Source: Candidatus Bathyarchaeota archaeon
GTDB lineage: Archaea; Thermoproteota; Bathyarchaeia; TCS64
DNA: 64,000 nt
Assembly (NCBI GenBank): GCA_963771885.1
Contig: CAVYVF010000007.1
Location: 109,089 to 173,088 of the forward strand
Direction: 5' to 3'
The notes beneath the pieces are model-generated. The model ran no database searches. It saw only the letters and a program-made list of their open reading frames with translations, and had not been told where the DNA came from. The position numbers and the translations under genes were made by a program. Below, piece after piece: positions 39,187 to 54,833 of the stretch (its first letter is position 1; the number at the start of each line of letters is the position of its first letter).

Positions 39187-40188
39187 GTGTCGTCCATGGG
39201 CATTTTTAACGGCTTCGTGCTTGACGGGTTGATACTACTAGGCGCTCTTCTAGTCCTCAACAAGGCGAGTGGCTGGGCGATCGAAAACGTTGTCAAGGTC
39301 GCTGATATTAGTGGATTCGGAAAAACCACCGTTGGCTTCCTAATTATTGGCCTCTCAACTAGTCTACCCGAGTTGAGTGTGGCCTTCTTCTCCGTCGGCG
39401 ACCCAGAAGCGGTTGGAATATCGATCGGGAACATACTAGGCTCAAACATTGTGAACGTCTGCCTGATCCTCGGCGTCTGCATCCTCTATGCTACTTTTAA
39501 GCATAAACAGTGCATTCAGTTCCTGCCTTTACTTACAGGAGACGAGTTGAAGGACCTCCTATTTGGCCTCTTTATGGCGTCTGTGATACCTCTCGTTCTT
39601 ATCTACATTGGGTATGCTAGCAGGATCGTAGGTATCGGGCTTCTACTGTTCTTTGCCTGGAATACTTACAAGATGATTAGGAAGAAAACAGTCGTCGAGG
39701 AAGCAGGACAAGGCCCCGAGAAGACCAAGCTTCCACGATATCTGGCGTTAACACTTATTGGGCTGATTGGAGTGGTAGGTTCTAGTTACTTCATCGTTGA
39801 ATCGGCGACAAACATCGCCGTTGGGATCGGTTTATCGAAGTTGGTCATTGGCGCTACGGTTATTGCGATTGGCACTAGTCTTCCTGAACTAGCAACGAGT
39901 TTAATCGCCACGAAGCACGACGAGATTAACATTGCCCTTTCGAATATCATTGGGAGTGGGATTATCAACCTCACACTTATCCTAGGTGCAACTTTGGCTC
40001 TCACGGAATTTACGGTAAATATTTCAACCTATACTGAACTTGTGGTCTTTAGTCTCATCGCCAACATGTTTCTCTGGTATAGTCTTAGCGGAGATAGGAT
40101 TTGCGAGAGGGAAGGCTACGTGCTCGTTGCTCTTTACGCAATTTTCTTGTTTGTTACACTGAGTGGCTATCGTAGTATCGTAATATAA
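39187..40188 (+). CDS. Na+/Ca2+ antiporter (CaCA/YrbG family)
   Basis: Two alpha repeats: TSLPE...GNILGSN and GTSLPE...NIIGS. Confidence 0.9.
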   Translation: MSSMGIFNGFVLDGLILLGALLVLNKASGWAIENVVKVADISGFGKTTVGFLIIGLSTSLPELSVAFFSVGDPEAVGISIGNILGSNIVNVCLILGVCILYATFKHKQCIQFLPLLTGDELKDLLFGLFMASVIPLVLIYIGYASRIVGIGLLLFFAWNTYKMIRKKTVVEEAGQGPEKTKLPRYLALTLIGLIGVVGSSYFIVESATNIAVGIGLSKLVIGATVIAIGTSLPELATSLIATKHDEINIALSNIIGSGIINLTLILGATLALTEFTVNISTYTELVVFSLIANMFLWYSLSGDRICEREGYVLVALYAIFLFVTLSGYRSIVI

Positions 40189-40339
40189 TATGCAATATGA
40201 GTAATAGCAAAGATCTAAAATTTGCAGAATTTATTTGAAGCGTGTGCGATTTGGAGGTGCGACGGCACGGCCACTCTAGTCGACTGCTGAACCGCACGCG
40301 CATTGCTAAAACCATCAATATTGAACAGATGCCTTTTTT

Positions 40340-41536
40340 TCAGCTGTAAAGATCGCTGATCCGCTTATTCTCTCCAAATACCTGATGCACTTTTTTGAGC
40401 TCCGTAGGTATCTGGATACGCTGGGGGCACTTCTCCAGACACTTGCCACAATTTACGCATGTTGAGGCGTTACCATTAGACTTCACAGCATCAATATTCT
40501 TAGCAGACTTTTCCATTTCCCCATATCTCCTCTTCACCATCATGCGTCGAAGCCAGCTGCTCTCAGTCGACATATTATTAAGCAACGCGAAGTTGCCGGG
40601 AATATTCACACCCACCGGACAAGGCATACAGTAATTGCATGCAGTGCAGGGAACAAGTATCTTCTCACGATAAATATCAGCAACCTTAGAGATTACTTTC
40701 TGGTCATCATCGCTTAGGGTATTGATCCCAGACCTGTCGGCGCTTGCACAGTTCTCCTCGACCATACTCATAGATCCCATGCCACTCAGTACAGTGGAAA
40801 CCTCCGGACGATTCCAAAGGAACTGGAAGGCCCAGTCGACGGGAGATCTCTTAGTCCCCGAAGCATTCATGATCTCCAAGGCCTCCTTTGGCGGATTCGC
40901 GAGTCGTCCCCCTTTCAGGGGCTCCATCACCACGACGGCTACTCCCTTGCTGTGAGCATACTTGAGCCCCTCAGTAGTCGCTTGAACCCCTGTATCCATG
41001 TAGTTATACTGAATTTGCGCCATATCCCATTGATAATAGTCGATGACCTCCTTGAATACGGGGAGATTATCATGAAAGCTGAAACCAATGTGATGAATCA
41101 GACCCTTCTCCTTCGCCTCTTTCATCTTATCCAATAAACCGAGTTTCTTTACCTTCTCAAAGCTACCCTTCTCCAGGTTATGGAACATGTAGAAGTCGAT
41201 GTATTCGGTCTGAAGCCTCTCTAGGCTATTCTTCAGATAATGGTCAAAGTCCCCGCTGTTTCGAACCAGAAAGGTCGGGAGTTTGGTGGCGATCTTAACC
41301 CGATCCCTATACCCATCCTTCAACGCGAGCCCAATTACCTTCTCACTGTCGCCGAGATGATACACATAGGCCGAGTCAAGATAATTAATGCCGAGATCTA
41401 TTCCGCGTCGTATTATTTTCACGGATTCATCCGTCTTCGCTCTCAGCCGATTGATCCTCCTAGGGGGGAGCCTCATACAACCAAAGCCCAGAGCAGATAC
41501 CTCCCAACCTAAGGAGCCCATCTTTCGAAACTTCAT
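40340..41536 (-). CDS. Aldo/keto reductase with C-terminal 4Fe-4S domain
   Basis: LGFGCMRLP, GINYLDSA..Y, IATK, GFSFH, CTACNYCMPC, CVNCGKC...C. Confidence 0.9.
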   Translation of the reverse strand: MKFRKMGSLGWEVSALGFGCMRLPPRRINRLRAKTDESVKIIRRGIDLGINYLDSAYVYHLGDSEKVIGLALKDGYRDRVKIATKLPTFLVRNSGDFDHYLKNSLERLQTEYIDFYMFHNLEKGSFEKVKKLGLLDKMKEAKEKGLIHHIGFSFHDNLPVFKEVIDYYQWDMAQIQYNYMDTGVQATTEGLKYAHSKGVAVVVMEPLKGGRLANPPKEALEIMNASGTKRSPVDWAFQFLWNRPEVSTVLSGMGSMSMVEENCASADRSGINTLSDDDQKVISKVADIYREKILVPCTACNYCMPCPVGVNIPGNFALLNNMSTESSWLRRMMVKRRYGEMEKSAKNIDAVKSNGNASTCVNCGKCLEKCPQRIQIPTELKKVHQVFGENKRISDLYS

Positions 41537-41640
41537 TGCAGACTCCTTTCCGGTCGAAGAATAAAACCCATTACTTTTGTAATCGTTACAGTACGATGCA
41601 CGCGCATACAATAAGTGGATAGAAAGATATGTGTCCAGAG

Positions 41641-42027
41641 TTATTTCCCGTAGGGTTTCGTTAACCATTGGAGTATCTCAAGAGTATAGCCTTCAGTGTC
41701 TTTGAATAGCATCGTCTTCATATGTAGATAATTGACCTGCTTTGGGGGTAGCTCAATAGCAACTCCGGCAGCCACCAGTTTTCGATGCCATGCCTCGACA
41801 TCGTCTGTGAACCAGGTAAGCATAACTGGTTTGTTCTCAGCGGTTTGGAGGTGCCCCTTCTCGGAGTCGACTATTCCTACGAGGATGTTATCTGTTACTC
41901 TAAAGGCCTTGGCGAATCCAACATCTATGACCTTCTCGAACCCTAGTGTGTCATGATAGAAGGCTTCTGCGCGGCCTATGTCTTTGTAATAGAAGAACGT
42001 GATCGTACCGTAAATCGGGGGATTCAT
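41641..42027 (-). CDS. VOC/glyoxalase family protein
   Basis: FY.DTLGF, FKDTEGY.LEI. Confidence 0.82.
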   Translation of the reverse strand: MNPPIYGTITFFYYKDIGRAEAFYHDTLGFEKVIDVGFAKAFRVTDNILVGIVDSEKGHLQTAENKPVMLTWFTDDVEAWHRKLVAAGVAIELPPKQVNYLHMKTMLFKDTEGYTLEILQWLTKPYGK

Positions 42028-42297
42028 TGAACTTTGTTAAGCTGTTACTAGTTATGAGGTTTAGGTTCAGGCGCTCGACGATGATAGAAATCTAAGACAT
42101 TCAAAGTTAGTCTAGATTCGGGACAGCGTCTACGATGGGTGTGCCATTATCATATTCGTAGACAGAGTACTACTGCATCGTGCATGCCGACGCCAGCATC
42201 CCCGATTACCCCCACTCGCCTGCTCGGGTGCTCGCCTTGTTTTTCCCCTCGGGAAATAGTTGTAAATTATTAAGCGATGCTGATTTGGGAGCCGTTT

Positions 42298-43230
42298 CTA
42301 CTCCATGTACAGCCGTTTCGCGTTCTCCCAGTACAACTTTTTGAGAATGGATTGAGGCAGATTAAGGCCATTAATCACCGTTCCCCCCGTGTCCTTGGTA
42401 TCTGCATCGGGGAAGGGCAGCGGAGTATCTCGTTCACTGGTTTCCCAGAGAATTCGCTGCGCAACGTATCTGCCTGAAAAGTAATCCCGGTCTTTTTCAC
42501 TGGAGGAGACGTCGGTTCCGAATAGAACCCTATCCGAGTACTTCAGCATGAATTCTCGTGCTTTCTCCGTGTCTTTACTAAGCTCGCGGGCCATCCACCT
42601 CGATGAAGCGGTGTCTACTACGAAGTTGGGGTACTCGTCCATCCACCTCGTTAACTCAGGTAATCTTTGTATCTCTGGCTGTGCCCCGAGATGAGGGATC
42701 TGGAATTTTAGCTTAGAATGTCTAGATAATAGATCCTCTAACTCTCTTAGGTGCGCCTCCTTTGTTCCATACTTCTCCGAATTATTGTATTGAGACGCAT
42801 AGTAGGTGTCAGGATCACCGATGTGGATGATGAGTGGGATTTCGTTGTCCTCTAAGGCTTGAAAGATTGGCTCTAGTCTGCGGTTACTAATCTGGAAATC
42901 CTTCGGAACCGTAATCCAGTCACGCCAGCGGGGTCCAAACCAAGTCTTAGCGAGAGCGTATCCTTGGTCCCTGATTTTTGATATCTCATTAAGGACAGCT
43001 TCGACATTGTACTGAGCTATGTCTTTCAGTGAGAGGTACTTTGCGAAGATGAATCGATTAGGATATTTTTCCTTGGCGGCTTGAAATCCTTCTTCGTTAT
43101 GGACGATCCCTATCTGTTTCGAGACCCCGAAGTCATCTTCGATTTCTATCATCCGGGATATGTCATCAATTTTTCCGATGTGTGTATGTGAATCTATTAT
43201 TGGGCCAGTGTACTTCCAGGAATTTCTCAA
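42298..43230 (-). CDS. Amidohydrolase family protein
   Basis: IDSHTH, IHIGD, PHLG, RVLFGTD, YWENA. Confidence 0.85.
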   Translation of the reverse strand: MRNSWKYTGPIIDSHTHIGKIDDISRMIEIEDDFGVSKQIGIVHNEEGFQAAKEKYPNRFIFAKYLSLKDIAQYNVEAVLNEISKIRDQGYALAKTWFGPRWRDWITVPKDFQISNRRLEPIFQALEDNEIPLIIHIGDPDTYYASQYNNSEKYGTKEAHLRELEDLLSRHSKLKFQIPHLGAQPEIQRLPELTRWMDEYPNFVVDTASSRWMARELSKDTEKAREFMLKYSDRVLFGTDVSSSEKDRDYFSGRYVAQRILWETSERDTPLPFPDADTKDTGGTVINGLNLPQSILKKLYWENAKRLYME

Positions 43231-43541
43231 GTTGAACGTCTAGTGGGTTGAACTCACTCAAAAGCCATTCCTCTAGATGTATGCCTTGATCTCGGGTATG
43301 TGTTGCGCACTTTTAACAAAAATGTATGTGGACTGGACAGAATGAAGACTAATTAAAATGCTTGAATAGTGAAAATTGGGGAGGATTTGGAGTATTTGTT
43401 CAACTATTTGACTTTAAATCTTCTAAATCAATCCCAATAATTTGCGCGCGGTGTGACTTCATTTCGAAGGATTGGGCTGGTTCTGTCTCTTTGTAGAAAA
43501 AGACCTTTATCAGATAATAGACGCTGAATATCGAGAGGCAT

Positions 43542-44826
43542 ATGAGCCAAGAAATTCCAACGAGCTCCGACGCCATTTTTGATGAGAACACGCGCGGATA
43601 CTGTGGCATCCTCAAACTGAGGGGAACAGCAAGCATGTTCTCCTCCAAACTCGACGAACTCCTAGCGCAGCTCGATCACGCACAGATCGCGTGGATTGAC
43701 TATATAGTCGACGACTTCGAGAAAGACGCAGTAGAGTACACTAATAAAGCGGGTTTCTCACAGCAATCGTAAAGAAACCCTCGTCAATGTCAATGGAAGC
43801 TACGAGGACCACGACACCGAGTTAGGCCTCCTACTACCCGCTATACATGTCGAAGGCTACGACGTCAACATAGAGCCTGCTCATCCTGATACGGGACAAT
43901 CTCATTATGACCATGCACACACATAAGCGGTCCCGCTTCTACCAGATGCGCCGCTATGGCGAGACCTACCTCAGAAAGCTCCCGAAGAAAGCCAATACAG
44001 TCGACATGGTATCCCTCATACTCGTAAGGATAATCGATGAGAACAACTCCTGGAGCTTCAAGCAGCTTCAAGAAATGAATGAGCGAACCGAGACTCACGA
44101 TGGATCTCAAGGACCCAAACTCCGTTGATGCTCATGTAGGGAACCAGGTTTTTCAGCTGAAGAGGGGGCTACTCCGCTACCTTTCCGCTCTTTGGGGATT
44201 ATCCGACACGTTATCCAGTCTTCTCTAGGAGACGCTGATTTGCTCTCAGATACGCCGGAGATCGCGCAGCGAATCGTCTTCTTACAAAACGAGGTCCATC
44301 AACAATTGACACTCTCCGAGCACCTATCAGGGGTTCTTGCCTCTAAGCCTGGAGAGTCTGAAATCAATCTACAACAATCAGCTTCAGGATAGAAATAACA
44401 TGCTTCAGGATCTCAATAACAATATGACAGGAAAGGAATAATCTGCTGCAGGAGAAGAACAACCAGCTTCAAGACACCAATAATGCTCTCTCAGTTAAGA
44501 ATAACCAGCTCTCTGAGAGGAACAACGACCTGGCGGAGCTTACAATTACGTTAACCAAGAGGAATAATCAGTTGACGTCGCAGAATAATCGACTTACGAT
44601 GCTGGGTGCGTTTTTAGCGATTCTCGGCGCAGGCTTCATAGTCCCTAATACGATTGCAACTGTGATGTCGCAGACTAATATTTTCATGTTTGGACCGGGA
44701 GATATGATTTGGTATCTCGCCCTCATCGTCGGTTCTACACTTGTAACGCTTTACGCTGTCTTCTGGTGGGTGAAGAAGATTGGGTTGCTTCCAGCATCGA
44801 GGATGCCGAGACAGGTGGCCCCGTGA
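43542..44826 (+). CDS. CorA/2-TM-GxN-like transporter paralog A, multiply frameshifted
   Basis: Fragments 43542-43772, 43907-44128, 44192-44392 and 44572-44826 align collinearly with the intact paralog at 48284-49774. Confidence 0.72.
44373..44604 (+). repeat. 11 x 21 bp coding heptad repeat (NNxLxxx)
   Basis: NNQLQDR NNMLQDL NNNMQER NNLLQEK NNQLQDT NNALSVK NNQLSER NNDLAEL TITLTKR NNQLTSQ NNRLTML, after removing one extra A near 44427. Confidence 0.85.
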
Positions 44827-45136
44827 ATCCCTCTTAATTTTTTTACATTCATTACGTACGGCGACAAGTTAAAGTTTTTTTAAAAATGGTTGTACGCACG
44901 CAGATCATAACAATTTGATGAACTTTGCAGAACTGGGTTGGTAGTTGTTTGGTAGCAGCGAGTAGAGGTCATATAAGTTAATTTAGTGGTTTATGTAGTA
45001 TTTTATAATACAAAATATTAACTATCGTTTATGGTTTTTGTATGTGTATGACTAGGGTACGCTATGTGGTCTATTTAGGAAAGCCCTTAATCTTAGTTTA
45101 GTAATCATTGCAGTAACCTTTTGAGGTCTGCATAGT

Positions 45137-47858
<2,722 letters not shown>

Positions 47859-48283
47859 CTGCCTGTACATGTATGCTCGCGAGCGCCATCATACAAGGGA
47901 CTAAGCAAAGCATTTTTTACATGTCGAGGCGAGTGGCGTAATCCTTCTCTAATTCTTTCAAGAAGTGTGCGTTTGATCGTCATGCACGCGCATGATAAAT
48001 TAATCTAATCGCCTCTTTAAAACGAAGGTAATATTCTCTTGATGGTTTGTGTCAGAATAATAATCTTGAGGGACTAAAACAGTAACTAATTCCCAGCCTT
48101 CATTACCAAGTTTATTCAAACCTGACTCTATACCAGAAGAAGCTGCCCATGTCTTATATTCCCACTTCATCAGATCACCAATGAAAACTATTCTTAAGTA
48201 TAATTTGACATTTTCTATAAACGGATTTTCGTATTTAGTATGAAACTCACTATTCGCTATATGTGTGACCTATCCAAGTCAAG

Positions 48284-49774
48284 CTAATGGATGTTTTTTT
48301 CTAAAACCACATGCTCTACGTTACTAATCACTACACCCAACTTCGATAGTTGCTTTATAATACTTTCAAAATCGGCATCATTTCCTTCTATTATAATTTT
48401 CAAACCAGTTGTTCTTTTATTTAATTCAATACTTTCTACATCGACTTTTGTTACTTCTGCCAAATTACCAATATTTAATGCCAAATCTGGAATCGACTGT
48501 TGATTCAAGGTGAATATTTTTAACGTAAGCCTACTTAGCTCCAAATAATATCCCTCTAATTCTTTTTTTTGTGGTTTATCATCATCGGACATATTCGGTA
48601 ATAGTCCAACTCTTCGAACCCACCAATATACTACCCCCGTCGTAACCACCGTTGATAAAAGTATCAGAGCAATATACCAACCCGAATCACTCGGAGAGAA
48701 CAAGAAAATATTCGTCTGAGAAAGCACAGTCGCGATAGTATTTGGCACAAAGAATCCGGCTCCAATTATCGCGAGAAACGCCCCGAGCAAAGTGATCCTA
48801 TTATTAGTCGCCGTTAGCTCGTTATTTCTCTCCGATAAGGTGTTGTTGATACTCTGAAGCTGATTATTCCGGTCCTGTAACTGGTTGTTACGATCCTGTA
48901 ACTGATTATTCCGGTCCTGAAGCTGATTATTGTAGATGGACTGCATACATTCAAGACCAGAGGCGAGAACCTCAGAGAGGTGCTCCGCCAAACCCAGTTG
49001 CTGGTGAACCTCGTTCTGAAGCATAGCTATCTTATCTAGAACCACGGGAGCATCGGAGACTAGGTCCGCGTCACCATACCTCAGAGAGGATAGAGTATCA
49101 GCCGTCCCCCAGAGAGCTGAGAGGTACCCTAATAGCGCGTGCTTCTGCTGATAGATCTGGTCACCGATGTGAGCCCGGATCATGCTCTCATCTTTCAAAT
49201 CCATAGTCAGGTCGTCGCTTCGCTCATCCATCTCCTGCAGCTGCTTGAAGTTCCACGAGTTATTCTCGTCGATTATCCTCACCATTAGGAGGGTTAGCAG
49301 GTCGTTTGGCTTCATCTTCTTGGGCATTTTTCTGAAGTAGCTCTCGGCGTATCGACGCATCTGGTAGAATCGATGTCTTTTCCTCGTGTGTATGGTTAGG
49401 AGTATGTTTCCTCTGAGGAGTAGGAGTAGGGGCTCTATGTTGACGTCGAAGCCTTCTGCGTGGATTGCGGGGAGTAGTAAGCCCATCTCGGTGTCGAAGT
49501 CTTCGTAGCTTCCTCTTACGTCCATTAGCAGTCTCTTTACGAGTTGATCGCTGAAGCCGATTTTTTTCGCGGAGTCTGCTGCTTCTTTTTCGAAGTCTTC
49601 GATTATGTAGTCTATCCAGGCGATTTGGGCGTGGTCTAGGAGGTTTGTGAAGCCGTCGATCTTTGGGTTGTATTGGCTTTGTGTTCCTTTTTCTGTGAGG
49701 ATGGCGCAGTATCCTCGGTTGTTTTCGTCTAGTATTGGGTCAGTTTTTATGTGGTTTTGGTGGTTGGTGGACAT
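48284..49774 (-). CDS. CorA/2-TM-GxN-like transporter paralog B with heptad-extended stalk and C-terminal DUF211-like domain
   Basis: alpha/beta N-domain (IAWID, LLTIH), long helices, two C-terminal TMs, tail ...LKIIIEGNDADFE.I...L..LGVVI. Confidence 0.72.
   Translation of the reverse strand: MSTNHQNHIKTDPILDENNRGYCAILTEKGTQSQYNPKIDGFTNLLDHAQIAWIDYIIEDFEKEAADSAKKIGFSDQLVKRLLMDVRGSYEDFDTEMGLLLPAIHAEGFDVNIEPLLLLLRGNILLTIHTRKRHRFYQMRRYAESYFRKMPKKMKPNDLLTLLMVRIIDENNSWNFKQLQEMDERSDDLTMDLKDESMIRAHIGDQIYQQKHALLGYLSALWGTADTLSSLRYGDADLVSDAPVVLDKIAMLQNEVHQQLGLAEHLSEVLASGLECMQSIYNNQLQDRNNQLQDRNNQLQDRNNQLQSINNTLSERNNELTATNNRITLLGAFLAIIGAGFFVPNTIATVLSQTNIFLFSPSDSGWYIALILLSTVVTTGVVYWWVRRVGLLPNMSDDDKPQKKELEGYYLELSRLTLKIFTLNQQSIPDLALNIGNLAEVTKVDVESIELNKRTTGLKIIIEGNDADFESIIKQLSKLGVVISNVEHVVLEKNIH
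48785..48931 (-). repeat. 7 x 21 bp coding heptad repeat
   Basis: (NNQLQDR)x3 NNQLQSI NNTLSER NNELTAT NNRITLL, with synonymous differences between copies. Confidence 0.9.
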
Positions 49775-49854: not shown

Positions 49855-50055
49855 TTAGATCCTTCTTGGGGGTCCACGCGGGGGGGCGTGAGGTGGGAGG
49901 GAGGGTGGCGGTGGATTTGGATGTTGTGATATCTTGGGTGAATCATTGGAAGGGACATCGGTTGTTCCATGAACGATTTGCATGTGGTGTTTGAGTTTCT
50001 CCTCTGATTTGAAGGGAATTCCACATATCACACATTTATGCTCTTTCTTCGGCAT
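49855..50055 (-). CDS. Small C2H2 zinc-finger protein with proline-rich tail
   Basis: CVIC...F.....L..H....H; TATA-like TTTATAAA ~35 nt upstream. Confidence 0.7.
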   Translation of the reverse strand: MPKKEHKCVICGIPFKSEEKLKHHMQIVHGTTDVPSNDSPKISQHPNPPPPSLPPHAPPRGPPRRI

Positions 50056-50501
50056 TACTCGTCGCCTGTTGATCTCTGGGAAAAATAGTTTATAAACACA
50101 TTCTATGCCTCATATAATTCACTATTTCCCTGATTTTCTCCATCAATACAAAAATACACCTCTGGATTTCTATGTATCACCTTTAAAGATAAACACTTTT
50201 TTCCTACACCCAATAAGCCTCACTCGTTATCAACTAAGTTACCCATTGATTTTTTACCGAGTCCCATCTGCCCGCGGTCAAGCCACAATCTGAGATAAAC
50301 GAATCTTACCCGTGTTCTGTTGTCCACTCCTCATTATTCGAGTCCCAGCGTCCCGCCTTGCGCGCCTGAGAGAGCGCCTCAATCTCCGGTTTTTCCATTG
50401 CCAACGTATAGACAAATTCAGCCATTTGAACAGTTCCCTAGATAATACAAGGAGATATTAAACGCCCTTCTCCACTCGCATTACAGGATAATCGAGTTCC
50501 T

Positions 50502-51896
50502 CTACTGCACGAAGCAGGGCTGGCTCGAGTCTGCGATGGCGAAGAAAGAGTGCGACGACTGGGAGTGGATCGAAGAGTAGATGTTAGTTCGCCTGCGGGC
50601 CTTCTTTCTCTTAAGGAAGCTGAAGCTGCTGAACCGCGCCGTGATGATCCTCTCCGTCGAGAATATCTTCGCTGCGATCCAGAGCACAAGGACCGTGAAG
50701 ACGCTGATGTAGGCGATGCTCCTGAAATAAGCCAGTAGTTGCCTAGAAAGGCAGCTTTAGTGGCGAGCATCGTGTGTGTGTAGGGGATCGCGAGCATGAT
50801 CCACTGGATCGCCGGTGGTAGCATCTCGATGTCGCTGAACATGAGTATCATCGCCGGGATGATCAGCGGCACAATGAGGACACCTGTGAGGCTCTGGGCG
50901 CTGCGGACGCTGTCCGTGAAGACTGCGAGGCTTATCGCGAGGGCGAGCGCGAGATGAGGGTCACGAACATCACCACACCGAGCAGCGCGTAGCCGATAGG
51001 CTGTATGCCTATTCCCACACCGGTTAGGTCGACACTGGTCAGCTCTGGGGCAAAGCTGAAGGCGAGCTGGTATAGTAGCCGAAGCCGATCATGTAGCTGA
51101 TAGAGCCCGCGATAGCGATCACGACTGAGCCCGCTAGTTTACCCCGAGGATCGTGAACCTGCCGACGGGTAGCGTCATCAGCGTCTCAAGCGTCTTCTGC
51201 TCCTTCTCGAGGGCGATGCTCGTCGCAGCCATCTGGATCGCGAATATTATCATCATCATCACCATGATTGGGAGCATGATGCTCTGGCTCACGATGAGAC
51301 TCGTGATTTGGCTCGGGGCGACCTCGATGACGTTACCCTTGATTATCGACGCGTAGCTAACTGAGACGGGGTCGTGGACGATCGCAGGGCTTCCGAGTTC
51401 ACCGGTGACGTCCATCAGTTGCTGGATTATGGCGAGGGAGTAGTAGTAGTTGTAAATGCTCACGAGGCTACCCGCAACATCGGTGCCCGATGCCTCGGCG
51501 ATGTTCAGGTTCTTCAGGTTCCCGTATATCTTCACGCGACCCCGAAGCCCATCCGTCATGTTCTGCGAGTAGCCATCAGGAACGTAGACGAGGGCGACGG
51601 AGTCCGAGTCCTTAAAGTTGACAAGGGCATCCCCGAGACTCGACGCTTGAATTGTTGTAATCGTATTATTCGTCGTTATGTACTGTACTAAGATACCCGC
51701 TAGGGCACCTGCATCGTCGCTGTAAACTGAGAATTGGCCCCTTGATAGCGGTCTGGACGACTGCTTGGCTGATCTGTAGTCCTTGCCCCATGAGGGGGTA
51801 GAGGAGGAGGGGAAGCAGGACGACGCCGAAGAGGATCTTCGGGTCCCTGATCAACTCCTTAATCTCCTTATAGACTATGCTAGTGAAGCTACCCAA
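50502..51896 (-). CDS. ABC-2 type permease (NatB-like), multiply frameshifted; 3' end uncertain
   Basis: KEIKELIRDPK, IALEKEQKTLETL.TLPV, AIPYTH. Confidence 0.8.
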
Positions 51897-52618
51897 GTTG
51901 CGTCGCCTCCATGAACGCCTGTTCGAGGTTGACGGCGTTGTACTGCGCCTTCAGCTCCTCTGGTGTGCCCTCCGAGATATCTTTCCCTCGTTAATGAGGG
52001 CGACCCTGTGACAGAGGTACTCGACCTCAAGCATGTTATGGCTTGATACGAGAATGGTGACGCCCATCTTCTCGGCGTAGTCCTTGATCATGCCCCGGAC
52101 ATGGTAAGCCTGGATGACGTCGAGGCCTGAGGTTGGCTCGTCGAGTATGGCGAGCTTAGGCTTGATCATCAGGGCTCTGGCGATCAGAAGGCGCCTCTTC
52201 ATACCCCTGCTGTAGCCGTTGACCCTGTCCTTGAGGCGGTCCCCGAGGCCACTGATCTCTTTCCCTGCTTGGACCATCTCCTCTTGGCTGCCTTGTCGTG
52301 CGCGTAGAAGCCCGCCATGAAATCGAGGTACTCCTCGCCATTGAGGTACTGGTATGCCCCGGCGTCCTCGGGCAGGTAGCTTAGTATCTTACGAATATCG
52401 TCAGCTCCCTTCACGACATCATTTCCGAAGACCTGCGCAGAGCCCGAGCTTGGGCTTATGAGCGTCCCGAGTATCCTGAGCGTCGTGGTCTTCCCCGCGC
52501 CGTTGGGTCCTATAAGCCCGAATATCTCGTTCTCCTCGACGTAGAAACTCATGCCCTTCAGGGCCTCGAAGTCTCCGAAGCTCTTCTTGAGGTCACGAAC
52601 ATCGATGGCGGGTCCCAT
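51889..52618 (-). CDS. ABC transporter ATP-binding protein (NatA-like), frameshifted
   Basis: GPNGAGKTT, YSRGMKRR, LDEPTSGLD, SSHN, ending NLEQAFMEATQLG. Confidence 0.88.
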
Positions 52619-53274: not shown

Positions 53275-54833
53275 TTACACCTGAGCTATTCCCGCGTGGC
53301 GCGATCTAAGATCATCGGCCATTGCCATAGCCGTTGCGAGTGATGTTGCTGGGAAGGCCGCACCCGTCTCATAAGATTTTGCAAAGTCGATGTGAGTGCG
53401 AAGTGTGTCAGGTCGGTATGGCTTCCAGGTGTCGTATTCAAAAGCTTGAGGCAGATCAAAACGCTCGTACACCGACTTGTGCATTGTTGCATCGTCCGAT
53501 GGAAGTTTTCGATGCTGCTCTGTCCACGTTCGTCCCGTGAGGCGGGTTATCAACCCCCACCCGCTTCTTACCTCGTCGTGCCGTCTGCCTTCAGGTGATG
53601 GGTGAGTGATCAGCAAGGCCTCATCGTACCTGATGGGTTTTGGGATAACTGTTGCCTGCTTTTAGCAGCCAGCGCAATGTTGCGTCGGATAATCGGGATT
53701 TGTTTTCCTCGTAACCGCCTCCTATGTCGGCGTGATTGCCGGGAAACCAAACCTGTTCAAAAAAGATATTTCCGTTTTGATCGCGCACTCCCAGTGTAGT
53801 TTCGCCTCGATACCAAGGGACGCGGTCGAAATCTTTGCGGTTCTCATCGATTGAGATAGCGTGCTTGGCGTAGAGAACGTTGGGATTAAGCGTGTAATCG
53901 TAAAACTTCAGGTACAGGTCTGTTAGATGGATGGTGCGAAGTTTCTGCTTCCAGTCGTACTCATCGATATCAAAATCAAATTTCAAGTGTGTGTAGATGT
54001 AGGCCACGATGGCGGCAATGAAGGTCGCTCCCACAACGCCGATGAAGTTCCACCAGAACGAGCCAAGAAAAGGTACAAGCTTGCCTAGCAAAGGTAAGTC
54101 GGGGGCGAACAAAAGACCCCAACTTGCTACTGCGTCCATGATTAGGAACAACACGATGAGCGACAGCAACATCGTGGGGTTAAGCAGCGCCGCAACAGTG
54201 TCGAATATGCCGATGAAATATGGGTATACATTTGCCGGGGTAGTAGTACCAACCGAGTGATGTTGTTGTCGAAATCGTTGTGCAATCAAGTCACGCGTTT
54301 GCAGAAGAAACCGTTGCCGCGGTGTGGCGGAATGCCAAGGCCGTGACGACGTAAACTGATACACATGTTTGACCGCGTGTGATGCGAGCTGCCGGCTAGA
54401 GGCAGTATCTAACTTTAGTGGTTTGCCGTCTGGAAGTCGGGTGGGGATACCACAATTGGCAATGACGCCTGCCAAGCAGCGGACGGTGTAAGCGCCACGG
54501 CTAAAGCCGAATAGGAAGATTCGGTCACCCGGGGCGCCAAAGCCGGATAATTGCAGCGTAACAATCGACGATGTTTGCCGTAATTCCAAAACCGGTGGCT
54601 TGGCTAATCAGATTGTAAATCTTTCTTCCGACCCATCCAAAAGCGAAGCGATTGTCTCGCGGCGATCCAAGGCCAGGATCGTAAAAGGCTACTTGCTCTG
54701 CTGGATCGATTGGCGAATTTGGGCCACAACGTGTGGCGCGGAATAACTTGTAAATATTGGTTCGATCTTCGTCGAACGTGACACCCCCGGCTTGCCCTGT
54801 GCCATCTGAAAAGATCAGGATATTCTTTGCCAT
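53275..54833 (-). CDS. DUF2235 (Tle1-like alpha/beta hydrolase) with internal TM segment; ~2 frameshifts
   Basis: KNILIFSDGTG, FYDPGLG, GFSRGAY, GIFDTV, HAISIDENR, VWFPGNHADIGGG. Confidence 0.85.

Follow-up and report, generated by a model that had tools for sequence, protein, structure and literature searches.

A clade of archaeal CorA-fold proteins with a stalk helix lengthened by tandem Asn-Asn heptads

Two CorA-fold paralogs, A and B, carry a stalk helix lengthened by 11 and 7 tandem NNxLxxx heptads, respectively; no earlier description of a heptad-expanded CorA stalk was found in the literature searched. Both are encoded in a 64,000-nucleotide stretch of Candidatus Bathyarchaeota archaeon DNA (GCA_963771885.1, contig CAVYVF010000007.1, positions 109,089–173,088, forward strand), hereafter the window (Table 1). 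In our preferred reading, to which we assign a probability of about one half, long forms of the A/B type would be gated CorA-fold cation channels with a five-helix Asn/Leu neck, in which register, and not exact length, is selected. We favour it because of the fold, the continuous helix, the constant register, the acid at the position of TmCorA D277, the selection on Asn and Leu, and a gene slot shared with canonical CorA.

Table 1 Features of the two paralogs and their neighbourhood (window coordinates)
Feature	Position	Strand	Basis or remark
Gene of paralog A (CorA-fold, 11 heptads); about ten indels here	43542..44837	+	translation, C21 twin, P0030
A heptad block, 232 bases = 11 x 21 + 1 extra base at 44427	44373..44604	+
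A TM1 with PNT motif, then SQTN loop where GMN is expected	44605..44679	+	translation, aligned register
P-type ATPase of the P2A (Ca2+-type) class, with frameshifts here	45137..47858	+
Paralog B ORF, 496 aa, CorA-fold, 7 heptads; relatives stop near residue 405	48284..49774	-
B cytoplasmic domain plus initial stalk portion, residues 1-281	48932..49774	-
B E275, equivalent of TmCorA D277	48950-48952	-
B heptad block, 7 x NNxLxxx after SIY, residues 282-330	48785..48931	-
B TM1, with Gly for M291 and Ala for T295 and T299	48710..48784	-
B PNT motif inside TM1	48737-48745	-
B SQTN where GMN is expected	48710-48721	-
B TM2	48608..48694	-	helix 361-389 in predicted structure
DUF211 domain, in frame with B	48290..48538	-	E 2.5e-11

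The counts of 11 and 7 put forward in an earlier note on this DNA stand. B holds its seven units in frame, and the 11 units of A, where one extra base intervenes, are intact and in frame both in an 87%-identical twin on contig C21 of the same genome and in P0030, an independent relative. Ten of the 11 begin with NN, the remaining unit being TITLTKR. Comparison with the twin shows about ten net indels across the coding sequence of A; the earlier note was silent on this frameshifted state. Contigs from related strains lack the indels near 44091, 44093 and 44344 in A and those at 46629, 47022, 47024 and 47213 in the neighbouring ATPase gene (each absence seen on one contig per run), and for this reason the frame breaks in both genes are read as most likely assembly errors. 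A compensating pair at 45261/45283 also sets these contigs apart from the window.

That the proteins are CorA-like, as had been proposed, is supported by both sequence and structure. B matches PF01544 at 56.3 bits (cut-off 27), Foldseek returns the CorA fold (E 2.1e-13), and VIA aligns 246 residues with MjCorA (4ev6; Z 22.8, r.m.s.d. 3.2) and 320 with TmCorA (5jrw; Z 22.9), the latter with an r.m.s.d. of 21.1 owing to a shifted TM part. The ESM Atlas yielded only archaeal clusters annotated CorA. A cytoplasmic α/β domain, a helical hairpin, a stalk–TM1 helix and TM2 are common to the A/B family, TmCorA (8tm*, 5jrw, 3jcf, 4i0u) and MjCorA (4ev6, 4cy4). CmaX (7nh9), ZntB (3ck6, 5n9y) and Mrs2 (8ts1, 8q8q) share the fold (Z 14.7–19.9), and we know of no tandem heptad expansion in any of them. 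In the AlphaFold monomer, the heptads are predicted to be ordered and to form one unbroken helix running into TM1, where the earlier note had placed them (predicted helices 243–352 and 361–389 in B, 262–400 and 408–436 in P0030). Its estimate of about 1 nm per heptad agrees with helix geometry. Confidence in the monomer models is low in the TM region (53–76; 53–67 for TM1 of B), which counts against the preferred reading. A four-copy prediction of the P0030 heptad segment scored 0.00 against a mark of 0.42, its controls did not fold, and it is given no weight either way.

A constant register runs through the family. Heptads were tabulated between two anchors, SIY and PNT, and in all 154 full-length rows having both, the segment from anchor to anchor measures 12+7n residues; length thus changes in whole heptads, as anticipated. 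Canonical CorA sets the baseline at n=1, not 2; n=2 is typical of a broad archaeal subfamily (41 of the 154 rows, in keeping with the figure of about two heptads that the earlier note gave for archaeal relatives), and n=6–16 of one clade, whose named members are Bathyarchaeia. Small expansions (n=3–4) arose separately from this long clade. When the 2.46 Mb genome was translated in six frames and scanned, at least three consecutive NN-heptads were found only in A, B and the C21 twin, and a chance origin of such runs is excluded. An assembly artefact was ruled out as well, by synonymous differences, by about 100 independent long clusters and by an independent contig (run X4, 48565–48955) that spans the B heptads without a gap.

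In the heptads, conservation lies in the Asn and Leu residues and not in their codons. Among 420 heptads from 42 genes, Asn occupies position 2 in 418 and position 1 in 389, and Leu occupies position 4 in 369 (the remainder Ile or Met); codons are mixed, and neither of the two Asn codons nor any of the six Leu codons is missing. Within B, three NNQLQDR copies differ mutually at 4 of 21 bases, all synonymously. Fixed residues under scrambled codons bear out the claim of protein-level selection, here shown for Asn1, Asn2 and Leu4. Whole-heptad indels were rejected as sufficient proof of selection, since 21-base slippage yields them without selection on length. The two to three membrane-proximal heptads stand apart, having Thr or Ser at position 5 and a net positive charge.

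Selection on length itself, with the stalk as a ruler or spacer that fixes how far the cytoplasmic domain stands from the membrane (the 'tunable' stalk of the earlier note) or with length differences that stop paralogs from mixing, strikes us as improbable. It would account for a long clade that never falls below six heptads among 101 rows, 63 of which have 9–10, for sub-clades that each hold a typical number (in a quick tree of 81 of the 138 rows) and for paralogs that differ within one genome (7 versus 11 in this one, 8 versus 9 in G014). Such clustering may, however, stem from ancestry and sampling; the close relatives of B range from 6 to 9 heptads, the full span of 6–16 corresponds to 10 nm, and the 67 loci lack a conserved partner gene. 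Because heptad number varies freely among close kin, we prefer a stalk whose exact length would drift while its register and sequence pattern are held by selection.

By alignment, the repeat unit is a copy of TmCorA S284–V290, the cytoplasmic seam at the pore exit, present once in TmCorA and MjCorA and 7 or 11 times here. A profile built from short relatives can be aligned with both structures over its full length, with a 7-residue insert ahead of TM1; 18 residues lead from the conserved Glu to SNRLNEI in the canonical CorA of G003, and 18 from the family's Glu to its first heptad. On this count, an earlier register that set the first heptad at TmCorA 277–283 was dropped. In TmCorA, seam residues S284, N285, S281 and L280 tune Mg2+ block and selectivity, while Mg2+ sites within the pore lie at T287 and D277 (PMC12933068). 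The D277 position, reached by ungapped count from the conserved Glu with an anchor pattern that permitted E, Q, A, G and T, is Glu in all but one of 100 long forms and in 41 of the 44 short ones, and an acid there is at least 90% conserved in alignment A2 too.

Set against TmCorA and MjCorA (13–17% identity), the family retains L294 (99 of 100 long forms), the TM1 proline with MjCorA spacing and the acid at 277, and differs in its filter and gate. GxN, considered the selectivity filter (PMC6972854), is absent from all 144 aligned rows, including 44 short forms, which speaks against the preferred reading; CmaX, ZntB and Mrs2 retain it (PMC9276622, PMC6972854). At the aligned GMN positions, 99 of 100 long forms have S-Q-T, and in 93 the next residue is Asn. 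This register is favoured because P0252, P0263 and P0277, which bear GMN at the same proline spacing, support it together with the MjCorA alignment; they disfavour one that aligns the prolines and places the SQTN Asn on N314. That Asn, one place past the N314 position, may substitute for N314. The absence of GMN had escaped the earlier note.

TM1 is remodelled in the long clade. Among 100 long forms, position 291 is always Gly or Ala, 300 always Gly and 288 always Thr; position 292 is Gly or Ala in 96, and Ala occupies 295 in 99 and 299 in 95. The hydrophobic gate M291/L294/M302 and the polar stripe N288/T295/T299, the polar face of the TmCorA rotation model (PMC3629940), are thus not retained as a set in the long forms, and the loss of T295 and T299, which TmCorA requires for Co2+ transport, is a further point against the preferred reading. 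PNT is invariant and polar, and SQTN is polar and almost so. The positions of the cytoplasmic Mg2+ sensor acids D89 and D253 align with Arg/Gln/Lys/Ser and Lys/Arg, with Asp or Glu one place off, a tentative point against the preferred reading in an alignment that is weak at this identity. Neither the α5–α6 tip nor the basic end of TM2 was seen to be relaxed in the long forms; basic residues follow TM2 in both groups. The TIGR00383 score of 28.9 lies below the equivalog cut-off of 200.75. Because the GMN filter is absent and TM1 is remodelled, A and B are, by their sequences, not members of the 2-TM-GxN family, and the long forms would at best function like CorA.

The long clade has its parent group in short archaeal CorA-like proteins with PNT (43–55% identity, shared SIY and PNT anchors, no GxN). 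These short proteins differ in having n=2 (some 3–4), mostly Met or Val at 291, and T295 and T299 retained; some forms with two to four heptads also have Ala291. They come from Micrarchaeota, Methanomicrobiales, Nanoarchaeia and Bathyarchaeia and are annotated 'magnesium transporter CorA' or 'CorA family divalent cation transporter'; no experimental work on them was found in the literature searched. Since the TM1 changes go back to the same origin as the long stalk, the association of the two counts as a single event, which weighs against the preferred reading.

With filter, M291 gate, T295/T299 and apparently M1 sensor all altered, the long forms might instead be sensors, scaffolds or carriers of another solute (an anion or water, say, on the Asn rings). 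Asn triads reportedly bind chloride in trimeric coiled coils (PMC12933892), and the CorA fold is repurposed in CRISPR-associated effectors, divergent CorA-family membrane proteins that bind SAM-AMP and are pentameric by model (PMC10600005); G000, moreover, has canonical CorA and MgtE too. The CRISPR effectors differ in having an N-terminal domain of another fold and in residing at type III CRISPR loci (PMC10600005), whereas the A/B family retains the CorA cytoplasmic fold in full and showed no linkage of this kind. No cas genes were recognisable by eye among the 16 commonest neighbour clusters at 67 loci, and no CorA-type PADLOC model matched B, P0113 or P0034. PADLOC matches of long forms fall on the coiled-coil segment and the short form is unmatched, so that a defence role was rejected as resting on generic coiled-coil matches. 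Together with the retained acid ring, the polar and almost invariant PNT and SQTN, the slot common with canonical CorA and the lack of a partner gene, these results make a role other than that of a divalent-cation channel improbable in our judgement.

In the channel that we prefer, the ion would most likely be Mg2+ or a similar divalent. From an archaeal subfamily in which the GMN filter had been replaced, 21-base slippage would have multiplied the single pore-exit heptad to 6–16 units, and five subunits, as in CorA, would form a neck 6–16 nm longer than that of CorA, as the fold suggests. The lining would alternate Asn rings (position 1, S284/M291 stripe) with Leu rings (position 4, T287/L294 stripe), and another face, made of amides and hydroxyls at positions 2 and 5 (N288/T295/T299 stripe), could turn to the lumen upon helix rotation, as proposed for TmCorA. 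With M291 replaced by Gly or Ala, the Leu rings would assume part of the gate, and the cytoplasmic domain, out of reach of the α5–α6/TM2 contact, would act only via torsion or bending of the stalk. A tight Leu-ringed five-helix bundle would be narrow for a hydrated divalent ion, which argues against this explanation. We put forward only tentatively, and as rather less probable than otherwise, the bolder version in which the gate has moved from the membrane into a water-soluble five-helix Asn-Asn-x-Leu conduit of 6–16 nm, rotation swaps Leu for amide rings over the entire length, and PNT and SQTN form the cation filter.

Asn at a and Leu at d form the classic pattern of a closed coiled coil, and pentameric ligand-gated channels have lateral portals beside a helix bundle. 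The heptads could accordingly be a sealed lever, with ions leaving through side windows at the membrane boundary, where the long forms have small residues (291, 292, 295 and 300) and distinct membrane-proximal heptads. We consider this unlikely: positive charge by the membrane would repel exiting cations, small residues at 291 are not confined to long stalks, and the acid at the D277 end and the near-invariant Asn2 along the full length exceed the needs of a plain rod.

Long forms lie in a slot between RtcB and riboflavin kinase, in the orientation that canonical GMN CorA has in relatives, which suggests that the two may be interchangeable in role. This slot stands empty at 21 of the 30 family loci, the genomes concerned are few and related, and G000, G001 and G010 have canonical CorA alongside long forms; all three points weigh against the preferred reading. 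Neither canonical CorA nor MgtE was found in G008 and G014 (84% complete), which have long forms. The search for a partner gene or operon conserved across 67 loci gave none, the commonest neighbour cluster occurring in five, mostly near-identical loci. Outside the window, the P2A ATPase adjoins a long form on C21 and at 3 of 83 further loci, and a functional tie was rejected as just local synteny among close kin.

Opening mechanisms proposed for CorA include iris-like dilation, helix rotation, asymmetric bending and an α5–α6/TM2 contact (PMC8865849, PMC8154316, PMC12933068). The natural series of n=1, 2, 3–4 and 6–16 discriminates among such models: rotation can be transmitted along a longer in-register helix, but a loop–TM2 contact cannot span 6–16 nm. 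The family also offers a test of the GxN requirement for divalent selectivity and, if the neck conducts, a natural template for long α-helical nanopores.

Finally, the DUF211 part of B is probably outside the channel. A true fusion is unsupported, as none of 120 homologs covers more than 81% of B, GC falls to 0.31 in this part from 0.48, and a GAGGG element precedes a TTG; DUF211 is probably a separate gene joined through an indel in a poly-A run, or else a strain-specific fusion.

Both CorA-like paralogs in the window, A and B, carry a run of NNxLxxx heptads between SIY and TM1; this variable stalk is the new part of these proteins, and the observation is real. In the translation of B, seven heptads follow SIY directly. 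The block in A measures 232 bases, that is, 11 × 21 plus one extra base. The same 11 units, including the odd unit TITLTKR, are in frame in an 87%-identical twin of A on a second contig of the source genome (C21), and the homologous protein P0030 also has 11 in-frame units. A six-frame scan of the whole genome found runs of at least three NN-heptads only in A, B and the C21 twin. Several indels of A, and of the ATPase between A and B, are absent from contigs of related strains (which cover only some of the breaks, with one contig per run), so we read the frame breaks in both genes as assembly errors.

Features of the window discussed in the text
Feature	Position	Strand	Remark
Cation-handling cluster	39187-47858		Ca/Na antiporter-like gene, A, P2A ATPase, B
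Ca/Na antiporter-like gene	39187-40188		
Paralog A	43542-44837	plus	reading split across three frames
ATPase gene	45137-47858		apparently frameshift-split
Paralog B	48284-49774	minus	intact ORF
DUF211 (COG1888) domain	48290-48538	minus	in frame with B
Small ORF	49855-50055	minus	C2H2 zinc-finger match; just upstream of B
ABC transporter genes	50438-52618		apparently frameshift-split
ORF pair	53621-54833		apparently frameshift-split

The proteins have the CorA fold and the heptads are predicted to be ordered, as the earlier note had supposed. PF01544 matches residues 49-291 of B, which lies far under the TIGR00383 cut-off. A profile built from 34 short relatives gives end-to-end alignments with the CorA proteins of Methanocaldococcus jannaschii (MjCorA) and Thermotoga maritima (TmCorA), with E values of 6e-8 to 1e-5. 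TmCorA is also the best Foldseek match for B (2.1e-13), and VIA Z scores are 22.9 for TmCorA, 22.8 for MjCorA (rmsd 3.2, residues 17-285), 19.9 for CmaX and 19.2 for ZntB. The AlphaFold monomer of B has a single helix at 243-352, with pLDDT 76-94 on the heptads and 53-67 in TM1; in P0030, a single helix is predicted at 262-400 (heptad pLDDT 63-95). Database labels of these proteins are only 'magnesium transporter' or hypothetical. Full-text searches, largely outside subscription journals and limited to main texts, found no paper on a heptad-expanded CorA or on this PNT subfamily; surveys of the family may mention them.

The unit that was copied can be identified by spacing. A conserved Glu (E264 in B) is followed at +18 residues by SNRLNEI-MKFLTII in the canonical CorA of a related genome (G003) and, at the same distance, by the first NNxL unit in the long and short forms of the PNT subfamily. 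By this equal spacing, canonical CorA has a heptad number (n) of 1 and every heptad is a copy of TmCorA S284-V290. On the TmCorA stripes, heptad position 1 falls at S284/M291, position 2 at N285/T299, position 4 at T287/L294 and position 5 at N288/T295. Published work on TmCorA assigns L280, S281, S284 and N285 to a cytosolic seam tuning Mg2+ block and selectivity, and places pore ion sites at T287 and D277 and the narrowest gate at M291 (PMC12933068); another proposal has N288, T295 and T299 turning into the pore, with T305 pore-facing throughout (PMC3629940). The D277 position is Glu in 99/100 long forms.

The filter and TM1 are changed as well, and the loss of GxN is a point that the earlier note missed. 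GxN, described as signature and filter of the CorA family (PMC6972854, PMC9276622), is absent at the aligned positions of 100 long and 44 short rows. Where 2-TM-GxN channels have GxN, the long rows have S (100), Q (100), T (99) and then N (93), and the short rows have S/G, Q/N and then varied residues. The Asn of PNT, at the T305 position, is invariant (144/144). In the long forms, residue 291 is Gly/Ala (100), residues 295 and 299 are Ala (99 and 95), residue 300 is Gly (100) and residue 301 is Phe (100). Most short forms have Met/Val, Thr and Thr at 291, 295 and 299; a few short forms share Ala291 or Ala295. Because GxN is the family signature, we file these proteins as CorA-fold proteins outside 2-TM-GxN that probably work like CorA; a non-cation role is improbable.

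The best explanation, to which we give about even odds, is a CorA-fold pentamer conducting like CorA, whose repeats would make up an Asn/Leu-layered neck that ends in an acidic ring on the cytoplasmic side. Taking 0.149 nm per residue, this neck would exceed that of CorA by 6.3 nm in B, 10.4 nm in A and 15.6 nm at n=16. The gate would be shifted in part from M291 to Leu rings. Coupling of sensor to pore would run through the stalk alone, because the α5-α6/TM2 contact described for TmCorA (PMC12933068, PMC8154316) would be unable to span the added length. That the same stalk is instead a sealed lever with side exits is unlikely.

Heptad number varies in whole steps. Among the first 120 homologs, the SIY-to-PNT distance is 12+7n in all 106 rows matched by a first pattern and in 116/116 matched by a looser one (4 unmatched). 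A larger count kept 154 of 298 given rows (at least 330 aa, both anchors; those dropped were mostly fragments, and a few kept rows are one gene under two ids). Here n is 2 (41), 3 (6), 4 (6), 6 (1), 7 (5), 8 (11), 9 (28), 10 (35), 11 (4), 12 (11), 13 (2), 14 (2), 15 (1) or 16 (1), and never fractional. At the DNA level, 48/83 loci have both anchors, all with integer n; among 16 loci of family f11 missed by the anchors, 14 have n=3-4. The whole-heptad register proposed earlier is thus borne out; that the array, suggested in the same place as a tunable spacer, gate or ruler, is a tuned ruler we consider unlikely.

A search with the repeat region added one long protein before scores dropped to short forms, so the long set comprises about 100 clusters among 2161 hits. 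In a quick tree without bootstrap (cytoplasmic domain alone, 64 rows, heptads and TM left out, GMN outgroup), the 20 long rows included, out of 101, group as a single clade (SH-aLRT 97) that lies within the n=2 forms; a separate tree agrees (support 99). Given this common single origin, the TM1 changes and the long stalk count as one event. Forms with n=3-4 occur in at least three other places. One separate Bathyarchaeia-class family (L104-L119) has expanded independently to n=3-4; its unit is another one, NNQLTIA/S, and its loop is GN or SN. The named close relatives are Bathyarchaeia. With 23/401 genomes matched at class level, long forms were found in five genomes of the same genus and one other family; one same-genus genome carries an n=2 form. 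By eye, four distant CorA-like proteins (P0263, P0265, P0275, P0239), three of them with GMN, appear to have a single additional copy of the heptad found in CorA, so duplication seems to come easily at this site. The genus also has other divergent CorA-like genes (L137-L142, 320-340 aa), which include two with GVN or GMN after TM1.

Codon usage argues for selection on the protein, as the earlier note held. In 420 heptads from 42 distinct long genes, Asn occupies position 2 in 418 cases and position 1 in 389, and Leu occupies position 4 in 369 (otherwise Ile or Met). The two Asn codons are about equally frequent, and each of the six Leu codons occurs 53-82 times. Across 1961 within-gene heptad pairs, position 2 shows a synonymous difference in 51% and a different residue in 1%; at positions 3, 6 and 7 the residue differs in 78-82%. 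The three NNQLQDR copies of B differ pairwise at 4/21 bases, always synonymously. Since slippage in 21-base steps by itself produces whole-heptad indels, protein-level constraint rests on this codon pattern rather than on the indels. Of 13 identical-peptide pairs, 4 are also identical in DNA, which points to continuing slippage and an array that is not purely old.

No conserved partner gene was found in 67 loci. A Ca-type P-type ATPase adjoins the long form in the window, on C21 and in 3/83 other loci, all close kin. More informative is the place between the RtcB and riboflavin kinase genes. In 30 family loci this slot is empty in 21, holds canonical GMN CorA in 4 (one with its far flank beyond the contig) and a long form in 1, with 4 unassigned. 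Eight extra loci, chosen for carrying a CorA-like gene, have a long form between both flanks (3) or beside the kinase only (1), GMN CorA (2, the source genome's own included), a divergent CorA (1, GMN status aside) or the kinase alone (1). Between RtcB and the HTH-riboflavin kinase (L038:5943-6992 against L031:3197-4414), the slot genes share orientation, and flanking sequence aligns between G003 and G008 at 76-79%. Slot, orientation and alignable flanks suggest, on the evidence of few, related events, that canonical CorA and the long form, in a like role, were exchanged in place. GMN CorA is also retained in the source genome, G001 and G010, and MgtE in the source genome; G008 and G014, each 84% complete, yielded neither.

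The 5144-base contig C21 has a P-type ATPase that shares 96.6% identity with the one in the window, followed by the twin of A, in gene order opposite to the window; the pair is a strain variant or a duplication. In G014, an n=8 long form (L036:998-1795) has stop codons and has lost its N-terminal part; it is convergent with an ATPase, as in the window, and an intact second copy (n=9) lies elsewhere. The apparent splits of ordinary genes in the window are what a long-read assembly without polishing should show. GC in the cation-handling cluster is 0.44-0.51 versus about 0.56. The DUF211 stretch behind B is AT-rich (GC 0.31), preceded by a poly-A run and then a GAGGG element before TTG, and is probably a separate gene; solved DUF211 relatives have 7-14 chains per entry, and another DUF211 of the genome lies on contig C22.
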